A stretch of 64,000 nucleotides of DNA from Candidatus Calescibacterium sp. (GCA_032249135.1 JAVVGL010000008.1:1-64000), one strand, 5' to 3'; positions 1-10,529 are shown, counted from the stretch's first letter. Made by a program: numbers and translations. Notes: generated by a model from the letters alone, not told the origin.

Positions 1-2
1 AG

Positions 3-1382
3 GAGGGATATATAATATCGGATTGGAGAGGTGTGCCGAGGGTTATATATGATGAGGGAGGGAGGGAGGTATGGAGAGGAGAGTTTGGTCCATTTGGAGA
101 GCCATTATATGAAAGAGGTGTTGTAAGCAACTATATTCCATTCAGATTGTATGGTATGTATAAGGATATGGAGACGGGTTTATATTATAATGTGAGGAGG
201 TATTATGATTGGAGAGTAGGAAGGTATTTGCAACCTGACCCTGTTTCTGACTTGAATTTGTATGTGTACGTGAATAACTCGCCCTATGATTTGGTTGATC
301 CATTAGGGATGTTTGAGACAACTATGCAATTATATGGTGCGCTTTGGCATGAAGGTCACTCAGTACATGAAGGAATCACAGAGGATGCTATCAGGGGTCT
401 GAATTATCCGAAATTAAGCCAATATGGATTTAGAGTGGATAACTGTTGGGATAATGGACCATTTACACTTACTGTTATCCCTTCTAACCCTCCTACGGTT
501 GTTGCACTACAATGCAGATGTCCCAGAGACACAGTAGCCCAAGGTGTAAATAGAGCAGATTGTTTTTATGCTTCAGATTCTTCTTACCATTGCGATAATA
601 GCAATTTTGACGGGTGTTCCCAAAAAGCAAAAATGATAGAATCCCCAGTCAGCTCAGGTTTAGTAACTTGCATATGTACCTCACCACCAGGGTGGCAACC
701 TCCACCGCCATCATATCCGCCACCAGCAGGAGGAGGACCAGGAAAAGGTGAGGGCGGGGGAGAAGGTGGAGGTTGTTCAGTTGGGAGACATGGAAGATTA
801 AGTGAGAAATCTCATGCATCTTGTTCTTGCTCCTTCAAAAGTGATTGGAATTATGAAAAATTGGGGAGGTTGCTCCATGCTGTTCAAGACTTTTGGGCTC
901 ATTCTAATGGGGAATTCGTTACAAAATGTAGTAAGAGAGAATGTGTTAGCCGGGTCATTGCTTGTTTGGATTGGGAGTGTGCGGAGTATGAGGTGAAACC
1001 GATATGGAATGGTTCTAATGTACCTTCTGGCTCAACAGCAAATTCCTCTGGAATATTCACAGGATTATTTGGGGGAGGCGGATGGCAAGATTGGGAAGAT
1101 GTTGTATGTGCTCTTCCATATCCTCTATATTCATCGTTAAGGAGGTATCCCCCATGTGATGTAGGGAAAAAAATTATGCCTCATTGTATGCTAAATAAGG
1201 ATTATGAAGGTGGAGATAATGATTGTATGTCTGCATGTGATCAGGGAGATTGGCCAGGTGATTGTGGAGGTAAAGACAACATTCAAAGGAAGGCTTTTAA
1301 TATAGTCAGAAATAGAGCGCAATCATCTTCAAGATTTTACCTGAGGCTTTTTTGTTTTGAAGGAGCTGGGATATGTTATTAG
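3..1382 (+). CDS. Rhs protein, 3' part (5'-truncated by window edge): Rhs-associated core plus Cys-rich Het-C/VWA7-like C-terminal toxin domain
   Basis: Frame is open from base 3 (EGYIISDWRGVP...), upstream of the GTG at 33. Rhs core: FRLYGMYKDMETGLYYNVRRYYD...GRYLQPDP...NSPYDLVDPLG. Tip motifs HEGIT, YHCDN, LGRLLHAVQDFWAHSN, LNKD. Confidence 0.9.
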   Translation, partial: EGYIISDWRGVPRVIYDEGGREVWRGEFGPFGEPLYERGVVSNYIPFRLYGMYKDMETGLYYNVRRYYDWRVGRYLQPDPVSDLNLYVYVNNSPYDLVDPLGMFETTMQLYGALWHEGHSVHEGITEDAIRGLNYPKLSQYGFRVDNCWDNGPFTLTVIPSNPPTVVALQCRCPRDTVAQGVNRADCFYASDSSYHCDNSNFDGCSQKAKMIESPVSSGLVTCICTSPPGWQPPPPSYPPPAGGGPGKGEGGGEGGGCSVGRHGRLSEKSHASCSCSFKSDWNYEKLGRLLHAVQDFWAHSNGEFVTKCSKRECVSRVIACLDWECAEYEVKPIWNGSNVPSGSTANSSGIFTGLFGGGGWQDWEDVVCALPYPLYSSLRRYPPCDVGKKIMPHCMLNKDYEGGDNDCMSACDQGDWPGDCGGKDNIQRKAFNIVRNRAQSSSRFYLRLFCFEGAGICY

Positions 1383-1924
1383 GATTTTTTATGTTTTTTT
1401 TAATTTCTGAGGTTTCCGCTGAAAATTTGGAGCGTAAATATACCTTAGGAATTAATCCTTTGGCTTTAATTGGAGGAGGTGGAACTCCAAGTGTTACGAT
1501 TGTGATTCTGAATGCTGAAATAAATTTTGAATTAAAAATTAAAAATAAGGTTTCTTTAGATTTTAATCTAACCAATTTGTTCTTCATAATTCCAATTGGT
1601 GTAAGATTAGGAGTAAGGGAGTACCTGGGAAAAGAAGGATTCAAGGGTTTTTATCTTCATCAGGGATTGGGAGCATCTTTTGTTTATGATGAGGGAAATA
1701 TTATACCACCAGCAATAACTATACCATATTTTTCCATTAAAGGGGGTTATAAATATGTATCAAAGAGTGGTTTTACGGTCGATCCTTTTTTGGGTTTAAC
1801 TTTGTGGTCCAAGAAGTTGATTCTCAAATCTTCAGAGATAGAAGGTATTTCTTTTATCGGATTACCAGATGCTCCTATTATCCCTTGGCCAAATATAGGT
1901 TTATATTTAGGTTATAGTTGGTAA
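1373..1924 (+). CDS. Small outer-membrane beta-barrel protein (DUF3575-like), putative immunity/partner 1
   Basis: Signal peptide (MLLGFFMFFLISEVSA), alternating amphipathic strands (INFELKI, LGVREYL, GFYLHQG, GGYKYV, GFTVDPFLG), C-terminal beta-signal GLYLGYSW; overlaps toxin stop by 10 nt. Confidence 0.75.
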   Translation: MLLGFFMFFLISEVSAENLERKYTLGINPLALIGGGGTPSVTIVILNAEINFELKIKNKVSLDFNLTNLFFIIPIGVRLGVREYLGKEGFKGFYLHQGLGASFVYDEGNIIPPAITIPYFSIKGGYKYVSKSGFTVDPFLGLTLWSKKLILKSSEIEGISFIGLPDAPIIPWPNIGLYLGYSW

Positions 1925-2250
1925 ATTTTATACAGAATGATTAAACTACTATGATGGATTGGAGAGGAGTGCCAATAGCTATATACGGCGAATTAGGGAA
2001 GGAGATATGGAGAGGGGAATTTGGTCCATTTGGAGAGCCATTGTATGAAAGAGGTGTTGTAAGCAACTACATTCCATTCAGATTGTATGGTATGTATAAG
2101 GATATGGAGACGGGTTTATATTATAATGTGAGGAGGTATTATGATTGGAGAGTAGGAAGGTATTTGCAACCTGACCCTGTTTCTGACTTGAATTTGTATG
2201 TGTATGGGAGTAACTCGCCGTATGATACAGTTGATCCAGTTGGGATGTTT
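1895..2250 (+). repeat. Direct repeat copy A (~355 bp): barrel 3' end, spacer and Rhs core
   Basis: Near-identical to 3875-4230 (offset 1980); the Rhs part from ~2007 also matches 71-314. Confidence 0.95.
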
Positions 2251-3321
2251 AAGACAGAAATGAGGAATTACCCTTTTGTATTCCTTCATATAGGTGATGC
2301 TATACATGAAGGAATTACAGAAGATGCTATTAGGCAACTTGGTTTACTATCTAACCGCGGTTTTAGGGTAAATGAGTGGGATTCAAATACAAGATTTTGT
2401 ATTTCTGGTATATTTTGTGCCGAATGTAGAAAATCTATAGACACAATAGCCCAGGGCGTAAATAGGGCAGATTGTCTTTATGTGTTAGACTCTTCTTATC
2501 ACTGCGATAATAGCAATTTTGACGGATGTTACCAAAAAGCAAAAATGATAGAATCCCCAGTCAGCTCAGGTTTAGTAACTTGCATATGTACCTCACCACC
2601 AGGGTGGCAACCTCCACCGCCATCATATCCGCCACCAGCAGGAGGAGGACCAGGAAAAGGTGAGGGCGGGGGAGAAGGTGGAGGTTGTTCAGTTGGAAGA
2701 CATGGAAGATTAAGTGAGAAATCTCATGTATCTTGCTCTTGCTCTTTCAGAGGTGATTGGAATTATGAAAAATTGGGGCGATTGCTACATGCTGTTCAAG
2801 ACTTTTGGGCTCATTCTAATGCAGTATTTGTTACAAGATGTATTGATAAAGTTGGCATTTTAGACGAGGAGTGTGTAGATTATGAGGTGAAACCGATATG
2901 GAATGGTTCTAATGTGCCTTCTGGCTCAACAGCTAGCTGGTGGGGACTATTCACAGGATTATTTGATGGAAGTGGATGGTCAGCGACGGACGATATCCTC
3001 TGTATCCTCCCATATCCTTTTTATCCAGCAACTCCTCCTGGATATCCAATACCAATTCTTATAGATTTTTTAAATCAGAGAAGACATCCTCCCTGTGATT
3101 TAGGACAAAAAATTATGGCTCATTGTATGTTAAATAAGGATAACCCAGGTTGGGATGGAGATTGTATGCATGCATGTGATCTAGGAGATTGGCCAGGTGA
3201 TTGCGGAGGCGATGATAGTATTCAAAAATTTGCTTTTAACGATGTCAAAAATAGAGCAATAGCATCATCAAGGTTTTATCTGATGCTTTTTTGTGCAGAA
3301 AAAGCAAATATATGCTATTAG
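1951..3321 (+). CDS. Orphan Rhs-CT cassette 2 (Rhs core remnant plus Het-C-like tip)
   Basis: Same Rhs core ending PYDTVDPVG; tip motifs HEGIT, YHCDN, LHAVQDFWAHSN, HCMLNKD; lacks the N-terminal Rhs repeats. Confidence 0.9.
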   Translation: MMDWRGVPIAIYGELGKEIWRGEFGPFGEPLYERGVVSNYIPFRLYGMYKDMETGLYYNVRRYYDWRVGRYLQPDPVSDLNLYVYGSNSPYDTVDPVGMFKTEMRNYPFVFLHIGDAIHEGITEDAIRQLGLLSNRGFRVNEWDSNTRFCISGIFCAECRKSIDTIAQGVNRADCLYVLDSSYHCDNSNFDGCYQKAKMIESPVSSGLVTCICTSPPGWQPPPPSYPPPAGGGPGKGEGGGEGGGCSVGRHGRLSEKSHVSCSCSFRGDWNYEKLGRLLHAVQDFWAHSNAVFVTRCIDKVGILDEECVDYEVKPIWNGSNVPSGSTASWWGLFTGLFDGSGWSATDDILCILPYPFYPATPPGYPIPILIDFLNQRRHPPCDLGQKIMAHCMLNKDNPGWDGDCMHACDLGDWPGDCGGDDSIQKFAFNDVKNRAIASSRFYLMLFCAEKANICY

Positions 3322-3379
3322 GATTTTTTATACTTTCTTATTTCCAATATTTTTGCCTCATGAGAGAAGAAGCATAGGT

Positions 3380-3904
3380 ATGTTATTGTTATTAGGATTT
3401 TTAACATTCGTGTGGATTTTTGGAAATTCATCTGAGTCAAGAAATTTTAGTTATACCTTGGCGATTAATCCTTTACCTGTTCTAGTGGGTATCACACGTG
3501 AAGCATCTATTGTAATTTGGATTCCAGGAATAAATTTTGAGTCAAAACTTAAAGAGAATTTTTCGCTGAATTTTGAATTAAATAATGTGTTTTTAATTTT
3601 CCCCTTTGAACTAGAAGTAGGAGTTAGGGAATATTTGAAGGGAGGAGGTATTAAAGGTTTTTATCTTTATCAAGGAATAGCAGGTACGCTTACCTATTTT
3701 TTTAATGGTAAATTTGAAGTTATACCAAACTTAACACTGACTTTTGGGGATAAATATATTTCTCGGAAAGGTTTTACCTTAGATCGTTTTATAGGTTTAA
3801 AAATAGTGTATGGTGGAGGTTTTTTCAGCGAATATTTGTCTATCGGATCTCTTAAGTTTGGAATTCTGCCAGCCATAGGTTTATATTTAGGTTATAGTTG
3901 GTAA
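3380..3904 (+). CDS. Small outer-membrane beta-barrel protein (DUF3575-like), putative immunity/partner 2
   Basis: Paralogue of 1373-1924; likely start ATG 3380 (MLLLLGFLTFVWIFG) rather than 3293; ends GLYLGYSW. Confidence 0.75.
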   Translation: MLLLLGFLTFVWIFGNSSESRNFSYTLAINPLPVLVGITREASIVIWIPGINFESKLKENFSLNFELNNVFLIFPFELEVGVREYLKGGGIKGFYLYQGIAGTLTYFFNGKFEVIPNLTLTFGDKYISRKGFTLDRFIGLKIVYGGGFFSEYLSIGSLKFGILPAIGLYLGYSW

Positions 3905-4230
3905 GTTTTATGCAGAATGATTAAACTACTATGATGGATTGGAGAGGAGTGCCAATAGCTATATACGGCGAATTAGGGAAGGAGATATGGAGAGGGGAAT
4001 TTGGTCCATTTGGAGAGCCATTGTATGAAAGAGGTGTTGTAAGCAACTACATTCCATTCAGATTGTATGGTATGTATAAGGATATGGAGACGGGTTTATA
4101 TTATAATGTGAGGAGGTATTATGATTGGAGAGTAGGAAGGTATTTGCAACCTGACCCTGTTTCTGACTTGAATTTGTATGTGTATGGGAGTAACTCGCCG
4201 TATGATGCAGTTGATCCGGTGGAAATGTTT
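3875..4230 (+). repeat. Direct repeat copy B (~355 bp)
   Basis: Near-identical to 1895-2250. Confidence 0.95.
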
Positions 4231-5277
4231 GAAGTAGGAGTGAAATGGAGCCCCTATTTTGTGCCGCTTTTGCATGTTGGCGTTGATCCTAACCATGAAG
4301 AAATTACAGAGAGTGCAATTAGTGAACTTTATGGAGCATATCCAGGAAAATATTCAAAATTATACCAATATGGCTTTAGGTTAGATGATTGGAGAGGAGT
4401 GTATTTTAGGATTGGCACTTTGACTTTTCAATGTAGAACTGGTACAGATGTTAGACCTGATGCAGATAGGGTAGCGCAAGGAACAAATATAGCGGATTGC
4501 CTCTTTTTAAATGACTCCTCTTACCATTGTGATAACAGCAATTTTGATGGATGCGATGAAAAAGGGTTTATGGTAATGAACCCGGTCAGCAATGGTTTAG
4601 TAACTTGCCAGTGTAGTGGTGGAGGAGGCAGTGGAGGCGGTGGAGGTAGGGGAAGAGGAGGAGGTGAAGGAGGTGGTGCAGGTTGTTCAGTTGCTAAACA
4701 AAGGTTGAAGAATAAAGGTTATGACCGATGTCAATATTTTTTCCCTTCTAGACCCGAGGAATGTAAGTGCGTTTGTTCTTTTAAGGTAGCTATCTCCCCT
4801 GATATTAGGGATTTGGGGCAAATGGATTACGAAAAACTCGGAAGGTTACTTCATCCTATACAGGACTTTTGGTCTCATTCCACAGCTATATATGTTCCTG
4901 GTTGTAAGACGAAAAAATGTGTTAAAAAAGTTCTTGGTGTATGCCTTGATGAGGAATGTGCAGAGTATTATAGGAATTATAATTGGACCAATCTTGACAT
5001 ACCTATGAGAACTCAAGCAGGAAATGTAGGTCTCAGGACAGGTTGGTTTGGGGCTAATGGATGGTCTGCCTTAGAAGATGTTGCTTGTTTATGGCCCCCA
5101 TGTAATGCGCACTGTATGTTAAATAAAGATGATGGTAGTTTTGATAGGGATGATTTTAGCCCGTGTGACGGAAACATTCAAAAGGATGCTCACTGGGAAG
5201 TAAAAAGCAAAGCAACAGATTCAACGAAATATCATTTAGATCTGTTCTGTAAAGGACTTGGAGGAATATGCTATTAG
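3931..5277 (+). CDS. Orphan Rhs-CT cassette 3 (Rhs core remnant plus more divergent Het-C-like tip)
   Basis: Rhs core as in cassette 2, ending PYDAVDPVE; tip motifs HEEIT, YHCDN, LGRLLHPIQDFWSHS, HCMLNKD. Confidence 0.9.
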   Translation: MMDWRGVPIAIYGELGKEIWRGEFGPFGEPLYERGVVSNYIPFRLYGMYKDMETGLYYNVRRYYDWRVGRYLQPDPVSDLNLYVYGSNSPYDAVDPVEMFEVGVKWSPYFVPLLHVGVDPNHEEITESAISELYGAYPGKYSKLYQYGFRLDDWRGVYFRIGTLTFQCRTGTDVRPDADRVAQGTNIADCLFLNDSSYHCDNSNFDGCDEKGFMVMNPVSNGLVTCQCSGGGGSGGGGGRGRGGGEGGGAGCSVAKQRLKNKGYDRCQYFFPSRPEECKCVCSFKVAISPDIRDLGQMDYEKLGRLLHPIQDFWSHSTAIYVPGCKTKKCVKKVLGVCLDEECAEYYRNYNWTNLDIPMRTQAGNVGLRTGWFGANGWSALEDVACLWPPCNAHCMLNKDDGSFDRDDFSPCDGNIQKDAHWEVKSKATDSTKYHLDLFCKGLGGICY

Positions 5278-5744
5278 GATTTTTAATTCTTTTACTGATA
5301 TCTGAGACTTCAGAAAAAAGGTTTGGTCATAAATACTCACTGAGTATTAATCCTTTGGCTGTTTTTATTGGAGTTGCAGGTCATGCGGGGGGAATAATTT
5401 TACCAAATCCTGGAATAAATTTTGAGGCGAAAGGAGGAGGTAATTGGTCATTTAACTTTGAAATTAATGCAATATTTTTTATTCCTACTGAAATAGAGGT
5501 GGGGATTAGGGAATATTTAAAGAAGGAAAAAGAATTTAGAGGATTTTACCTTTATCAGGGATTAGCTTTTGGATGGACAAATTTCGTATTTGGTTTATAT
5601 ATACCAAACCTAATTTTGGCGGTTGGCTATAAGAATGTTTCTGCAAAAGGTTTTACCATAGACCCAATTTTAGGTTTAAGAGCAGTATATACTGCTTTTG
5701 TAGTATTACCAGTTTTGGGATTATATTTAGGTCGTACTTGGTGA
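5268..5744 (+). CDS. Small outer-membrane beta-barrel protein (DUF3575-like), putative immunity/partner 3
   Basis: Paralogue with MLLGF leader overlapping the toxin stop; ends GLYLGRTW. Confidence 0.75.
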   Translation: MLLGFLILLLISETSEKRFGHKYSLSINPLAVFIGVAGHAGGIILPNPGINFEAKGGGNWSFNFEINAIFFIPTEIEVGIREYLKKEKEFRGFYLYQGLAFGWTNFVFGLYIPNLILAVGYKNVSAKGFTIDPILGLRAVYTAFVVLPVLGLYLGRTW

Positions 5745-5808
5745 GTTTTGTATAGGAGATACGGTACGTTAGAGTATAGTTTTTGAGTGAATTGAAAGCG
5801 ATAAATTT

Positions 5809-6312
5809 ATGCTTCTAATTTTAATATTTGGGTTAATTTCAGAAGTTCGGGATGGAGACTTAGAAATGAGATATAAGTGCACTATATCTACTAACCTTTT
5901 TTCTATTGTTTTTCTGGAGGCAGAACATGGGGTTTTACCTCTTCCTTCTCCCGGGATAAATTTTGAGTTAAGGATTTCAAAGAAGTTTTCATTTAACTTT
6001 GAACTAAATAATGTACTTTTTGTTCTTCCCCATGAGGGAGAATTAGGTATCAGGGAGTATTTAGGGAAGAAAGATTTTGAAGGTTTCTATCTTTATCAAG
6101 GGTTTGCAATTGGATTACCTATATCTTACCGTCCTGATAGATCTTTTATTCCAACTGATCCCAGTTTAGTATTAATAGCTGGTCATAAATCTATTGAAGA
6201 TAGTGGATTTACAATTGATCCTTTTTTGGGAGCAAAGATATTTTATGCGACGGAGGAAAAAAGGATAATTTCTACCCCAGCATTAGGTTTATATTTAGGT
6301 TATAGCTGGTAG
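5809..6312 (+). CDS. Small outer-membrane beta-barrel protein (DUF3575-like), orphan copy 4
   Basis: Paralogue (PGINFE, GIREYL, GFYLYQG, GFTIDPFLG, GLYLGYSW) with no toxin cassette directly upstream. Confidence 0.75.
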   Translation: MLLILIFGLISEVRDGDLEMRYKCTISTNLFSIVFLEAEHGVLPLPSPGINFELRISKKFSFNFELNNVLFVLPHEGELGIREYLGKKDFEGFYLYQGFAIGLPISYRPDRSFIPTDPSLVLIAGHKSIEDSGFTIDPFLGAKIFYATEEKRIISTPALGLYLGYSW

Positions 6313-6660
6313 ATTACGAATTGATTATGTTTCCATTATACATTTGGAATTTACATTCCTACGCAAAACTGTTATTTCAATATCTTTGGTAGCTTACCTT
6401 ATGAAGATAATAAGTTTGCAATTGAACTTGGGTTCTTTATTGTGTCTTTCATTTTATAGGGTGCTGTTGGGAGGTTCCGAGCCTTTTGTCCTTGTACCTC
6501 GTCTTCGCTTTCAAAGAAAGGTAAAGGCGGAAGATAGTGAAAGATGTATCAGCAGGGGGCAAGTTGAAGTCAGCAATAAAGTGGGTCAGCAGAGACAATT
6601 TTGTAAATAAAAACCAGTAACAAACAAAATGAAAAAGATAAAAATAAAATTATTTGATAC

Positions 6661-8244
6661 ATGAGGAAATTAAAGTGGAACGGATGGGGATATGAGGGAG
6701 AGGAGTTCCCGCAAGATAGGGTAAAAAAAATTATTGATATATTGCAATCTTTTTTGGGAATTTCAGAGGAAGATTTCTCTCCATCTATAAATCTTGAACA
6801 AATAAATTTGCCAGAAGCAAAAATAGATTATCAATTGCTTCAGAAAAAATTGAAAGCATCTTCTGTTAGTGTTGAAAAGTACGATAGGGTTTTAAATTCA
6901 TCTGGTAAAAGCTATAAGAACCTTGTGAGATTAAGAAAGGGTACTATAAAAAAATTTCCAGATGCAGTTGTATATGTAAAAGATAAAAACGATGTTTTTG
7001 AAATTCTCTCTTTCTGTGAAAGTGAAAATGTTGCATGTGTTCCTCGTGGTGGTGGAACAAGTGTCGTCGGGGGAGTTGATGTTGAAGAAATATCATCTCC
7101 CGTTTTGGTTTGTGATTTGACTTATCTTAACAAAGTCATTGATGTAGATGTTAGATCTTTGACGGCTCGGGTTCAGGCAGGGGTGAGAGGACCTCACCTT
7201 GAAGAACAACTCAGAAATTATGGTCTTGCCCTGAGACATTATCCTCAATCTTTTCATTTTTCTACTTTGGGTGGATGGATAGCTGCAAGATCTGCTGGGC
7301 ATTTTTCGTCAAGATACGGAAAAATAGAAGATATGATACAAAGCATTGAAGTTATAACTCCTCGGGGGGTTGTAAAAAATTTTGATGTACCATCAACTGC
7401 TTGCGGACCAGATATACCTCGTACATTTGCTGGTTCTGAGGGTATTTTAGGTATAATAACAGAAGTTGTAGTGAAGTGCCATAAAATACCTACGAAAAAA
7501 TTTTCAACAGCTTTTGTTTTCCCTGATTTTGAAACTGCGTGCGATGCAGCAAGAAAAATAGTTCAATCTGAAATATTCCCTCCACTTTTGAGAATACTTG
7601 ACGAAAGAGAGTACATGATATCTTCTATCCTTTCAGGTAGAACATATAATGGCGGAGCCCTTTTACTTTTGGGGTTTGAATCAGATGATGAAACGGAAGA
7701 TATTGTACGAGCTGAGTTTGAAAAGGCATCGCAAATGTGTATAAAATCCGGCGGAAAAGATGAAGGAAAAATGAGATTTGAAGATTGGAAAAAGGAGTAT
7801 TTTGAACAGCCTTATCTTCGCGATGTACTTTTGGATTTCTGTATAGTTGTTGATACTCTTGAAACAGCCACAAGTTGGTCTAACCTTATGAACCTTTATA
7901 GAAGAGTAAAAGAAGCTATAGAGCAAGCTATTTTTTCCGAAACTTTGGGTGGTGTGACTTGTCGTGTAACTCATGTTTACACAACTGGGGCATCTTTGTA
8001 CTATTCTTTTTTTGCAAAAGCTCAAAAAGGAAAAGAGGAGGAGCTTTGGTGGAAAATAAAAAAAGCCGCCTCTGATGCTATATCAAACTATGGAGGAACA
8101 ATCTCTCATCATCACGGGGTAGGGAGGGACCACAAGATTTGGGCTCAAAAAGAGCTGAAAGATTCTTTGATTTTTCTCAAAACTTTGAAAATATCTCTTG
8201 ACCCAAAAAATGTTATGAATCCCGGAGCTGTTTTTGATATGTAA
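6661..8244 (+). CDS. FAD-linked oxidase, alkyl-dihydroxyacetonephosphate synthase-like
   Basis: KWNGWG N-terminus, PRGGGTSVVGG, HYPQSFHFSTLGGW, GSEGILG, SHHHGVG, LDPKNVMNPG. Confidence 0.8.
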   Translation: MRKLKWNGWGYEGEEFPQDRVKKIIDILQSFLGISEEDFSPSINLEQINLPEAKIDYQLLQKKLKASSVSVEKYDRVLNSSGKSYKNLVRLRKGTIKKFPDAVVYVKDKNDVFEILSFCESENVACVPRGGGTSVVGGVDVEEISSPVLVCDLTYLNKVIDVDVRSLTARVQAGVRGPHLEEQLRNYGLALRHYPQSFHFSTLGGWIAARSAGHFSSRYGKIEDMIQSIEVITPRGVVKNFDVPSTACGPDIPRTFAGSEGILGIITEVVVKCHKIPTKKFSTAFVFPDFETACDAARKIVQSEIFPPLLRILDEREYMISSILSGRTYNGGALLLLGFESDDETEDIVRAEFEKASQMCIKSGGKDEGKMRFEDWKKEYFEQPYLRDVLLDFCIVVDTLETATSWSNLMNLYRRVKEAIEQAIFSETLGGVTCRVTHVYTTGASLYYSFFAKAQKGKEEELWWKIKKAASDAISNYGGTISHHHGVGRDHKIWAQKELKDSLIFLKTLKISLDPKNVMNPGAVFDM

Positions 8245-8360: not shown

Positions 8361-10529
8361 TTGAGTTTTATGGTTAGAAAAGAAAAAATATTTCTTTTTT
8401 CTACTATATTTTTTATTTTTCCCCTTTTTTTATTTTTCGTTTTTCCATTTTATTCTTATTCCTCCAAAACTTTTGAGTTAAAGATTGCAGAAGCGACAGA
8501 ATTTTTGAATAAAGGTGATCTTATAAATGCATATGTGAGTTTTTCAATAGCCTATGAGTACGCAGAAAATACCAGACAAAAGGCTGATGTAATGGTAAAA
8601 CTCGGAAATATACTTTTCAAATTGGGAGATACATTCGCAGCAGAAAAAACATATGAGAAAGCCCTAACTCTGGATCCCGGAAATTTTGAGATTTTAAAAA
8701 AGGTCATAGTCAGTAAGGCTGAAAATCTATCCCCGGATTTCAAAGCTTATCTTAAAAAAATCCCAAAAGATAAAATAGATTCTGAGATTTTATATTACTG
8801 GGGAAAATATGTCCTTTTGGCTGAGAAAAATCCAAAAGAAGCGTGTAATATTTTAGATTCTGTAAGGAAAGAATCTGAATTTTTTTATAGAGCTTCTTAT
8901 CTTTGCGGTATAGTCTCGGTTATGAAGGGCGATAGGGATGATGCGGTGAGGAGATTCGAGAGCGCTTCATTATCTCCTGATATAACACTTCGGGACTATT
9001 CTCTTCTTGCATTGGCGAGAATATATTCCGACTCCGGATATTTTCAGAAGGCTTATCATTATTATTCCAAGATTACAGAGGGTTCTCCTGTTTTTTATGA
9101 TGCAAAATATGAAGTTTGTTGGGTTTTGTATGGGCTTGAAAAATATGGGGAGGCGCGCGAATGCGTTGAATATTATAGAAGGTCAGCCCCTAAATCACAT
9201 CTTACAAAGAGAATAGAAGTTCTTTCAGCTTTTTTGACGATGAATGAGGATTTAGTTGGTGCTCTACTTACTTTCACATTTGTCTCTGATTCCGCTGAAA
9301 TGATATTATCAAAAATAGTAGAAGTGGAGAGAATGCCGCTAAAATTTTGGGAGAAAGATTATATAGATTATTTTAGCGCACACGACCCAGATATAGTATT
9401 ATATATACAAGCCTTCCCTGAATATAAAGATTATCTAAAAAAGAAAACATACATAGAGCAGGTGAAAAGTGAGATAAAATCTATAATTCAAGATATGCAA
9501 AAGGTAGGTAGTATGTCCGTTATCGTTGCTGATAAATCACTTAAAAAGTATTTTGAAAGGGTATGGTTTGTTCAGGAGAGAATAATAAATTTGATTTCCT
9601 CTTTTATTGAAAATAGTATGGAATATGGAGAAAAAAATGTTTGGACCACTCTTTATTCTCTTTCCAAAGAATTAAGAAAACTTGATTTTAAGGCAAGAGA
9701 GCTCACCGCACTATCAGCTGTAAAATCTCTGGAATTGTATCGTAAAGGCGAAGAGTTCAAAAATTGGGAGAAGAAACTCGAAGTCTACAGAGGAACGATG
9801 AATTATACTATTGATGAAATTAGGAAATTAGTAGATTATCAGAAAAAATCAGCAAGCTATTTTGTATCGCTTGTAAATGAAATATCATCTGAACATGATA
9901 GAGGAGAAAATACTAAACTCAAAGAACTCATTCAATATTTTGGAACTTCTCAAGATGTTTTTTTTGATTTTGCAAACTTGTGGCAAGATCTTATACAATC
10001 TCTAAATAAATTTCTTCTTGTTCAAGAAAGAAAATTGAGGGGTATGTATTTTGTCCTTGATAATTTCAGCCGTTATCTTGATGATTTCAAGAAATCTCTT
10101 GTGAGATATATTGTCCTCTCTAAACTCAGGCGTGAATTCTTTGAAATATACGCCCTCGCTCAGTACGGTTTTATTGAGGTTGCTTGGATCATCAAAGAGA
10201 GCGAATCCGAAGCATTAAATAGAATGCACTCTATAAGACTTAGGGAAGAGGACAATATCAGAACTAATTTCTCAAAAGTTCAAGATGAATTAAATAAAAT
10301 AGAAATTCAATCAAAGTCAGTAAAATCTGATTCTGTTTTTGAGGAGGAGGTCAGAACTTATGATTCTATATTAAGTGAAATCATAAAAAAAGTGGATACT
10401 TCTTCTAATATTTTTTCACGTGGGAGCACAATCACTTTTACTCCTCCTCAGGATTTATACCAAATTATTAGCGAATTAGAGAAAAAGTCAAAAGAAGAAA
10501 CACAAAAAAAGAAAAAGGGAAGAAAGTAG
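8361..10529 (+). CDS. Exported TPR protein, GltC-like
   Basis: Hydrophobic N-terminus, multiple TPRs (LALARIYSDSGYFQKAYHYYSKI, YEVCWVLY), coiled-coil C-terminal half; start may be ATG 8370. Confidence 0.55.
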   Translation: MSFMVRKEKIFLFSTIFFIFPLFLFFVFPFYSYSSKTFELKIAEATEFLNKGDLINAYVSFSIAYEYAENTRQKADVMVKLGNILFKLGDTFAAEKTYEKALTLDPGNFEILKKVIVSKAENLSPDFKAYLKKIPKDKIDSEILYYWGKYVLLAEKNPKEACNILDSVRKESEFFYRASYLCGIVSVMKGDRDDAVRRFESASLSPDITLRDYSLLALARIYSDSGYFQKAYHYYSKITEGSPVFYDAKYEVCWVLYGLEKYGEARECVEYYRRSAPKSHLTKRIEVLSAFLTMNEDLVGALLTFTFVSDSAEMILSKIVEVERMPLKFWEKDYIDYFSAHDPDIVLYIQAFPEYKDYLKKKTYIEQVKSEIKSIIQDMQKVGSMSVIVADKSLKKYFERVWFVQERIINLISSFIENSMEYGEKNVWTTLYSLSKELRKLDFKARELTALSAVKSLELYRKGEEFKNWEKKLEVYRGTMNYTIDEIRKLVDYQKKSASYFVSLVNEISSEHDRGENTKLKELIQYFGTSQDVFFDFANLWQDLIQSLNKFLLVQERKLRGMYFVLDNFSRYLDDFKKSLVRYIVLSKLRREFFEIYALAQYGFIEVAWIIKESESEALNRMHSIRLREEDNIRTNFSKVQDELNKIEIQSKSVKSDSVFEEEVRTYDSILSEIIKKVDTSSNIFSRGSTITFTPPQDLYQIISELEKKSKEETQKKKKGRK

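Follow-up and report, generated by a model that had tools for sequence, protein, structure and literature searches.

The stretch of DNA analyzed here, hereafter the window, comprises 64,000 nucleotides (nt) from Candidatus Calescibacterium sp. (GCA_032249135.1 JAVVGL010000008.1:1-64000), and its first 6,312 positions hold a compact array of Rhs-type toxin genes and small downstream genes. Seven open reading frames (ORFs), all on the plus strand and minimally spaced, fill this region: three Rhs modules, each consisting of a core and a C-terminal tip (tipA, tipC and tipD), and four paralogous small proteins (B1 to B4), here called partners (Table 1). Position 1 of the window is the first base of contig C8 in an assembly of 2.10 Mb and 51 contigs that is 87% complete, and the Rhs body upstream of tipA is therefore missing from the window. 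The initial annotation of this DNA had described three Rhs modules, each followed by a small paralogue, tips that keep HExIT, HCD, LHxxQDFW(A/S)HS and NKD and contain 21-23 cysteines, and partners that end in GLYLG(Y/R)(S/T)W. These descriptions proved exact. The Rhs core model TIGR03696 (Rhs_assc_core) was matched in all three modules, at 62.3, 57.1 and 53.1 bits against a cut-off of 32.5; each motif occurs once in each tip; and the partner C-terminus is GLYLGYSW in three cases and GLYLGRTW in one.

Table 1. Coordinates of the Rhs cores, tips and partners at the start of the window (aa, amino acids; Zn-PLC, zinc-dependent phospholipase C).
Feature	Coordinates	Strand	Description
tipA ORF	3-1382	+	5'-open, 459 aa
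C-terminal Rhs core of main Rhs gene	3..308	+	TIGR03696 E 4.7e-17; ends in PxxxxDPLGM, predicted autocleavage motif
tipA toxin domain (predicted)	309..1382	+	357 aa, 23 Cys, Het-C-like; predicted Zn-PLC / S1-P1 nuclease fold
B1 partner	1373..1924	+	183 aa; start overlaps tipA stop; signal-like helix and 8-stranded barrel (model)
tipC ORF	1951-3321	+	456 aa
Orphan cassette 1 Rhs core	1951..2244	+	ATG start; TIGR03696 E 1.9e-15; 300-nt repeat 91% identical to 20-319
tipC orphan toxin tip (predicted)	2245..3321	+	21 Cys; 73% identity to tipA
B2 partner	3380..3904	+	174 aa from ATG 3380; 203 aa from GTG 3293 (ORF open)
tipD ORF	3931-5277	+	448 aa
Orphan cassette 2 Rhs core	3931..4224	+	ATG start; TIGR03696 E 3.4e-14; repeats D1, D2
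tipD orphan toxin tip (predicted)	4225..5277	+	21 Cys; 51% identity to tipA
B3 partner	5268..5744	+	158 aa; start overlaps tipD stop
B4 partner	5809..6312	+	167 aa; second partner behind tipD

The Rhs core makes up the first ~100 residues of each of the three tip ORFs and ends in P-x4-D-P-L/V-G-M, and the segments P94-YDLV-D99-P-L-G-M103 and Q-P-D79-P are invariant across the three modules. In the available text on RhsA of Pseudomonas protegens, the autocleavage motif is PxxxxDPxGL and the cut is placed after the fifth residue, W1350 after D1346 (PMC8765631). Judged by its residues, the motif of the window modules is a form of this motif, and cleavage is predicted. A 300-nt direct repeat lies over the Rhs core in three copies with 89-91% identity, and cassettes 2 and 3 share, at 98% identity, a second 300-nt repeat that covers the partner end, the spacer and the core start. 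Neither repeat is a product of chance, and both are ready substrates for cassette exchange. An RHS-repeat shell was found upstream of the same tip type in the metagenome locus L028, where an ORF of at least 1809 aa (RHS_repeat 38.6 bits, cut-off 22) is followed by two partner genes. The protein search returned no full-length protein (710-2025 aa) bearing the tip, which is weak evidence.

We numbered tip residues from the M of DPxGM as residue 1. The tip family is small: only 31 proteins among 5.8 billion matched at E<=0.001, all of them at E 2.6e-31 or better. Most of these relatives are metagenomic, and one carries the source name Candidatus Calescibacterium sp. Across 30 tip sequences, D84, D96, D194, H198, H292 and D298 are invariant, and H20, E21, H94, H190 and N296 are at least 90% conserved, as are 15 Cys positions. 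Catalysis is indicated because the candidate metal ligands are invariant or conserved to this degree. The Tox-HET-C signature was given by Zhang et al. 2012, in the available text, as H, [DE], HxD, HxxxDxxxH and Nxx[DE]; a relationship to Zn-PLCs and S1-P1 nucleases was predicted there, and the choice between phospholipase and nuclease was left open (PMC3482391). H20-E21, H94-C-D96 and H190-xxx-D194-xxx-H198 of the tip agree with this signature, and the last element, N296-K-D298 (NxD), deviates from Nxx[DE]. The Pfam family VWA7_N (PF25107) matched 30 of 30 tips at E<=1 over ~20 residues of the HxxxDxxxH stretch (best E 8.6e-5), with every match below threshold; the tips of the window scored 15.3-21.5 bits against a cut-off of 27.5. 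The Pfam family PF07217 was not among the tip matches. Language-model features placed the tip by VWA7_N/Het-C clusters (0.90-0.92), which we take as a lead only, and a sequence search of the PDB with the tip profile gave chance antibody rows only (E 0.8-1.1).

The AlphaFold2 (AF2) model of tipA, built from 30 sequences, has a predicted local distance difference test score (pLDDT) of 81.8, and only a Pro/Gly-rich linker of 36 residues (133-168) falls below 50. The model contains extra beta elements relative to Zn-PLC. When it was compared with 48,161 chains by VIA-align, a structure search that is independent of Foldseek, the first three rows were Zn-PLCs: 1olp_A (Z 7.7, root-mean-square deviation [rmsd] 3.9, 156 residues aligned), 1ah7_A (Z 7.6, rmsd 4.3, 172 aligned) and 8cqm_B (Z 7.3, rmsd 3.7, 162 aligned). 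Rows four to six were S1/P1-type nucleases (Z 5.6, 5.5 and 5.2), and row seven was unrelated (Z 3.6). Over these six rows, 156-172 residues within model residues 2-355 were aligned at rmsd 3.7-4.3 and 12-15% sequence identity. Conserved His and Asp residues appear along the tip in the order of the metal ligands of Zn-PLC and S1-P1 enzymes. We assign the tip with moderate support to the Zn-PLC / S1-P1 nuclease superfamily. It is predicted to work like a Het-C/Zn-PLC enzyme, yet it lies outside the Pfam families by their curated thresholds.

The position of the predicted cleavage site suggested a possible link between release and activity. In five of the six top VIA-align rows, judged from alignment ranges only, the alignment starts at tip residue Phe2, the N-terminus expected after cleavage. 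Phe2 is aligned to chain residue 1 in 1olp_A and 1ah7_A and to what we presume to be the first residue of the mature enzyme in 5fb9_A, 8qjl_A and 3w52_A. Zn-PLC and P1 nuclease use their N-terminal Trp as a zinc ligand. With a cut behind DPxGM, Rhs autocleavage would present a Phe in place of this Trp and could thereby complete the active site, such that release would amount to activation. Against this idea, an Rhs protein encoded on contig C39 of the same genome has the same G-L-F junction, and its Het-C-like part begins ~350 residues later.

The four partners of the window are 39-43% identical to B1. They belong to a rare family, with only 37 proteins at E<=0.001 in an exhaustive profile search of 1.84 billion representatives. 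The AF2 model of B1 (pLDDT 83.2) shows a helix at residues 2-11 and eight strands, and its Foldseek rows, at probability 1.00, include the OmpA transmembrane domain (best E 7.9e-4), Ail, OmpW, the N-terminal domain of OprF (TM-score 0.71 on the target) and NspA; soluble barrels of the PsbO type are also among the rows. A PDB sequence search with the partner profile gave nothing. Links to DUF3575 (PF12099) come from the margins of the family: P0067, a protein in the weak tail of the profile list, passes PF12099 at 32.5 bits (cut-off 21.1), two further tail proteins have sub-threshold DUF3575 or OMP_b-brl matches, and PF12099 is found at E<=1 in 3 of 34 members of the partner alignment A6 and in none of the four window partners. 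A profile comparison by hhalign of A4, the partner profile, with A7, made from four tail proteins, gave a probability of 99% and E 5e-18, although A7 was chosen from matches of that same profile. Language-model features put B1 beside DUF3575 clusters (0.97-0.98). The partners thus appear, on sequence grounds, to be distantly related to DUF3575. A distinct subfamily of partner-like barrels, P0052, P0053, P0059 and P0060 (alignment A8), was also noticed, with ~158 aa and the motifs NYERK, YKWI and PDSFGIY.GKSW. Scans of genome contigs with A4 and with A8 yielded no confirmed locus in either case.

Several features of the partners are those of outer-membrane proteins. The last residue is aromatic in 73 of 75 unique complete partners (W 61, F 8, Y 4), in agreement with the terminal beta-signal named in the initial annotation. 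The mature part lacks Cys in 62 of these 75, and an uncharged N-terminal run of at least 10 residues is present in 66 of 75 unique partners. The genome encodes LpxC (227.9 bits) and, on contig C3, a protein with Omp85 and POTRA domains; therefore, an outer membrane and an insertase are present.

Tip and partner are linked well beyond the window. We examined 39 stretches, namely 36 metagenome loci from a partner-profile scan, the window, a second array on contig C3 and one locus of the same genus; many come from related populations, and the counts that follow are not independent. A same-strand partner follows 63 tip units, five tips end their locus, and no tip has anything other than a partner behind it. 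Among the five, four are cut by the end of the locus and one is a 91-position fragment with 471 bases remaining. The median gap between tip and partner is -7 nt, that is, the frames overlap. One partner follows the tip in 33 of 63 units, two in 29 and three in one. Tips split over two or three reading frames stand beside intact partners in L024, L027, L031, L033, L036 and L038, which suggests decay of the tip. Partners without any tip within 1.5-5.9 kb upstream occur in L004, L019, L045 and L049; L045 carries two tandem distant homologues (5926-7032, E ~1e-33) flanked by genes for a DEAD-box helicase and a BpsA_C polyamine synthase. We considered a separate clade for second-position partners and rejected it: the tree requires 8 changes of label, compared with ~11 on average in shuffles, and 10-11 of 500 shuffles are as low. 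Second-position partners are interspersed with first-position ones on the tree, and in L036 a B4-type partner occupies the first position behind a fragmented tip. Most simply, extra partners would be orphans of cassettes whose tip was lost, and B4 probably remains from such a cassette. In L015 the tipA-B1 cassette (B1 100% identical) is flanked on both sides by different cassettes, and L016 is collinear with the window; because the order in L015 differs from that in the window, cassettes are shuffled between strains.

Tip and partner also pair consistently at the level of sequence clusters. At 90% identity, there are 24 tip clusters, 16 clusters of first partners and exactly 24 combinations; thus, every tip cluster is paired with a single partner cluster. 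In the partners, mean pairwise identity is 16% in the loops, compared with 56% for the remaining protein. In two tip pairs with 86% overall identity, the partners share only 43-44%, and the tips differ almost only in residues 196-285. Conversely, three tip pairs with partners 95-97% identical are 93-100% identical from residue 181 in most windows of 15 residues, compared with 17-62% in the N-terminal half. The chimera comparisons were of window 309-1379 with L022:1573-2670 and of L025 and L029 with L020 and window 4225-5274. TipC is itself a mosaic, near-identical to tipA in the mid-section and different in the N-terminal third and in residues 196-285. A recurrent breakpoint in the tip coincides with the conserved motif LHxxQDFWxHS, around residues 181-196. 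Thus, the C-terminal half of a tip stays with its partner while N-terminal halves are freely exchanged, a pattern that physical linkage alone can explain. Given these natural chimeras, any cognate specificity must reside in the C-terminal half. We also tried a region-by-region correlation of tip and partner identity and rejected it as support: its peaks at 31-75 and 196-300 overlap the predicted contacts, but the Spearman coefficient is ~0 and linkage explains the C-terminal peak.

One pair was modeled as a complex, namely the 357 aa of tipA (alignment A5) and residues 17-183 of B1, its mature part (alignment A6); the score was 0.78 (0.75, 0.78 and 0.79 in three runs), compared with 0.00 for the best of three controls. 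Among solved complexes, 58 of 80 reach the mark applied to such scores, as do 2 of 110 mismatched pairs; this calibration is rough here since our own alignments were used. The three runs agree in at least 91% of contacts, with a partner pLDDT of at least 84. All listed contacts of B1 lie in or beside loops L1-L4 at one end of the barrel (28-49, 69-75, 102-117, 143-164 and 172-176), and none lies in the three short turns or at the N-terminus. On tipA, the contacts include H20, D84, H94, H198, H292, N296 and D298 and the segments 1-16, 47-68 and 254-274, with the hairpin 47-68 pairing with barrel loop L4 in the model. The model supports predicted binding in which the barrel would form a lid over the metal site of the tip. 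Eight-stranded barrels usually have both termini in the periplasm and long loops outside; because of this usual topology, the contact end of B1 would face the medium.

The same genome holds further Rhs loci. By tblastn, a second array was found at the end of contig C3, with four tips, three of 465, 495 and 440 aa and one truncated to 300 aa, and with seven partners, of which one is short at its N-terminus; this brings the genome to 7 tips and 11 partners. This array is cut at the contig end in the same Rhs core residues as the array of the window. Two of its tips look degenerate: in one, Y replaces the H of HCD, and in the 300-aa tip the N-terminal third is absent and Q replaces the first H of HxxxDxxxH. 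The Omp85/POTRA protein mentioned above (L001, contig C3, 279-1754, plus strand) lies ~3.8 kb past the far end of this array, a proximity that may be chance. Contig C39 (L002, 1556-8230, minus strand) encodes a complete Rhs of 2224 aa (RHS_repeat 87.3 bits) with a longer, Cys-poor, Het-C-like tip that keeps the four motifs in variant form and matches VWA7_N below threshold (E 4e-4). Behind it, in place of a barrel gene, lies a 474-aa ORF (131-1555, minus strand) with an N-terminal hydrophobic segment and no Pfam match; it may be a second, unrelated type of immunity protein against this toxin fold. A search of 41 genomes located partners in 2 (the source genome and one of the same genus), and tips were located in one of seven family genomes, all 82-87% complete; not being found elsewhere is no proof of absence in either case.

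The many conserved Cys residues, the exported-looking partner and the exported-looking 474-aa neighbor of the C39 Rhs favor action of the tip outside the cytoplasm. Because of this, and because phospholipases C also outscore nucleases in VIA-align, lipid is favored over nucleic acid as the substrate. Four hot-spring metatranscriptome libraries, from four studies judging by the codes, contain contigs that cover parts of tipA, B2, tipD, B3 and B4 at 95-99% identity, and two of these contigs bridge the tipD/B3 junction; positions left uncovered carry no information. As these contigs are from related strains, come without strand or level and may reflect DNA carry-over, they are at most a weak hint of transcription.

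A promoter and terminator scan of positions 1-6800 gave no more sites than shuffled sequence, and an Rfam scan of the whole window gave no match. Two short tandem repeat arrays in the window are both distant from the toxin locus. Directly after the array lie a 527-aa ORF (6661-8244) and a 722-aa ORF with a hydrophobic N-terminus (8361-10529), which show no sign of belonging to the toxin locus, no family-library search having been made.

Overall, we propose that the locus encodes a polymorphic Rhs toxin with an outer-membrane barrel as its immunity protein, and we put the probability of this reading at roughly 0.6. The window would be the downstream end of the toxin locus, with one expressed tip and two orphan cassettes that could replace it through recombination at the conserved Rhs core. 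The tip would be a disulfide-rich metal hydrolase of the Zn-PLC / S1-P1 nuclease / Het-C superfamily, and aspartyl autocleavage behind DPxGM would free it from the Rhs shell. With each tip, one or two small proteins are co-inherited, and these would be exported and inserted in the outer membrane as 8-stranded barrels of the DUF3575 superfamily. These barrels would act as cognate immunity proteins, whose long, hypervariable, surface-side loops would clamp the tip and cover its metal site, and a toxin from a sister cell would be neutralized at the envelope. Gene order, folds, conserved linkage, variable loops and the predicted interface were computed here, for an uncultured lineage. A more specific version, in which the exposed loops catch the Rhs toxin outside the cell and plug the metal site before it reaches its lipid target, is tentative and rather doubtful; under it, Het-C-type toxins would gain their first immunity family and a DUF3575-like barrel its first function. 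From these data we infer the toxicity of the tip, its favored lipid substrate, the membrane insertion and orientation of the barrel, the protection it would confer and the route of delivery. The initial annotation had seen an envelope effector paired with an outer-membrane barrel for immunity or recognition: its observations are confirmed, and its interpretation is supported by computation, including the tipA-B1 complex it had called for. Its assignment of the tips to Het-C/VWA7/Zn-PLC stands as far as the six VIA-align rows and the sub-threshold VWA7_N matches go, and its assignment of the partners to 8-stranded outer-membrane proteins of DUF3575 stands for the barrel, with DUF3575 kinship only distant.

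A number of our results weigh against the proposed mechanism. The tip domain and the window partners match no Pfam or NCBIfam model above its cut-off, and Foldseek found no PDB row at E<=0.001 for the tip model. Best Z values of 7-8 are also typical for models without true relatives, a known caveat of VIA-align; the tip result carries weight because all six top rows come from one superfamily and are followed by a clear gap. The hydrophobic N-terminal segment of the partner lacks a basic n-region when read from the first ATG. Only a single cognate pair was folded, and close cousins of a true partner also reach the mark. Among divergent cassettes, tip and partner identity are uncorrelated (Spearman -0.01), and the Pearson coefficient of 0.60 is driven by near-copies. 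The hairpin 47-68, at the center of the modeled interface, lies in the half that is exchanged while the partner stays the same; either sequence change is tolerated at this contact, which would then run mainly through the backbone, or that part of the interface is wrong. With two partners behind 29 of 63 tips and three behind one, a strict one-to-one immunity model is insufficient. Moreover, a toxin injected into the periplasm would be out of reach of barrel loops that face outward. Neither TssC (VipB) nor PAAR was found in the 87%-complete genome.

Other readings share part of this evidence. The barrel might be the outer-membrane receptor or target of the tip, with each cassette supplying a resistant allele, as for BSAP-1 of Bacteroides fragilis, where the available text documents a toxin gene beside a non-targeted outer-membrane-protein orthologue (PMC4999547). 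Partner variability that sits in loops would suit a receptor under diversifying selection. However, 11 paralogues lie side by side instead of one replaced locus, and since sensitivity through a receptor would be dominant, a large set of alleles would raise the risk; binding is predicted for the cognate pair but is not expected of a resistant replacement, and partners persist beside fragmented tips, as immunity genes do. We therefore consider this replacement of the target unlikely. It is quite unlikely, too, that the barrel docks the cleaved tip on the producer surface and keeps it inactive until target contact, as a carrier rather than, or besides, an immunity protein. An interface that covers the metal site on the loop side of the barrel, overlapping frames that fit co-translation, and the failure to find type VI secretion system (T6SS) parts among those searched (TssC and PAAR) would all suit such a carrier, but the partner-only loci and the second partners without a tip are easier to understand as orphan immunity genes. 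We know of no precedent for an outer-membrane barrel that holds or displays an Rhs tip.

The nature of the tip allows two further explanations. If it were a cytoplasmic nuclease and the partner a soluble beta-barrel inhibitor, the S1/P1 nucleases within the six best structural rows (Z 5.2-5.6) and the PsbO-type soluble barrels in the Foldseek list would be expected, and both activities were left open for Het-C in the available text of Zhang et al. (PMC3482391). Phospholipases C score higher (Z 7.3-7.7), however, and the partner has an N-terminal hydrophobic helix, an almost invariably aromatic last residue (73/75), outer-membrane proteins as its best Foldseek rows and kinship to DUF3575; furthermore, the Cys content of the tips (21-23 each, with 15 positions conserved to at least 90%) fits an oxidizing compartment. 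A cytoplasmic nuclease is thus very unlikely in our view. Most improbable is a system of kin recognition without toxicity, in which the tip would be an adhesion ligand and the barrel its polymorphic receptor. Variable loops, variable tip segments and predicted binding would be equally expected there, but the conserved candidate metal ligands point to catalysis, Rhs encapsulation with an autocleavage motif is a feature of toxin delivery, and orphan cassettes and decayed tips beside intact partners form a pattern of toxin and immunity genes.

To our knowledge, the immunity proteins of Rhs, contact-dependent inhibition and T6SS toxins are soluble or lipid-anchored proteins of the cytoplasm or periplasm. 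If immunity by an outer-membrane barrel is true, self-protection would be possible at the cell surface. It would also provide a first role for a branch of the uncharacterized DUF3575 superfamily and a compact toxin-inhibitor pair from a thermophile, with a 357-aa tip and a ~165-aa barrel. Fungal incompatibility proteins and vertebrate VWA7 share the Het-C fold, and the activity and inhibitor of a bacterial Het-C member would therefore be useful more widely. Finally, it would name the missing immunity partner of Het-C-type toxins, for which the column is empty in the 2012 table as it stands in the available text (PMC3482391).

The locus resembles Rhs systems, as described in the available text of PMC3482391 and PMC8765631, in its core with PxxxxDPxG(L/W/M), its variable tips, its small downstream gene and its arrays of orphan cassettes that repeat the core. 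Unlike in known Rhs systems, the downstream gene here encodes a predicted integral outer-membrane barrel and not a soluble cytoplasmic or periplasmic protein, searches of the 87%-complete genome for T6SS parts (TssC and PAAR) gave none, and a second breakpoint lies inside the tip at LHxxQDFWxHS. With Tox-HET-C, Het-C and VWA7_N (PF07217, PF25107), the tips share the signature H, [DE], HxD and HxxxDxxxH and the predicted Zn-PLC / S1-P1 fold. However, they match VWA7_N only over ~20 residues and below its threshold, and they have N-K-D in place of Nxx[DE], 21-23 Cys and added beta-hairpins. The Tox-HET-C row in the table of Zhang et al. 2012, apart from the supplements, lists no RHS repeats and no immunity protein (PMC3482391). 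Over the whole tip model, the best structural matches are Zn-PLCs (Bacillus cereus PLC 1ah7, the N-domain of clostridial alpha-toxin 1olp and Listeria PlcB 8cqm) and S1/P1 nucleases, from which the tip differs by its identity of only 12-15%, the lack of any PDB sequence match or Foldseek match, its extra beta elements and its 36-residue linker.

The partner has the 8-stranded barrel, N-terminal hydrophobic helix and terminal aromatic residue of DUF3575 (PF12099), the OmpA transmembrane domain, Ail, OmpW and NspA, to which distant profile links also point. Unlike DUF3575, its family is tiny (37 representatives) and tied to Rhs tips, and in the available text of the literature that names DUF3575 no role as Rhs partner or immunity protein was seen. 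Similarly, in what is available of the literature searched, including PMC3482391 and PMC12419801, we found no integral outer-membrane barrel as an immunity protein; for lipid-directed toxins, the available text of the lipocone paper describes periplasmic, BamE-like and other immunity proteins and no outer-membrane barrel (PMC12419801). The nearest precedent is BSAP-1, in the available text a diffusible MACPF toxin whose gene adjoins a resistant outer-membrane-protein orthologue at a single locus (PMC4999547). As there, a toxin gene adjoins the gene of a barrel, which is predicted in our case. In contrast to BSAP-1, where resistance comes from non-recognition, the cognate barrel here is predicted to bind, 11 paralogues are present and the toxin is borne by Rhs; the mechanism of the precedent is thus the opposite of the one proposed. 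Rhs cassettes and Tox-HET-C are already known, and what is new here is the class and location of the candidate immunity protein.

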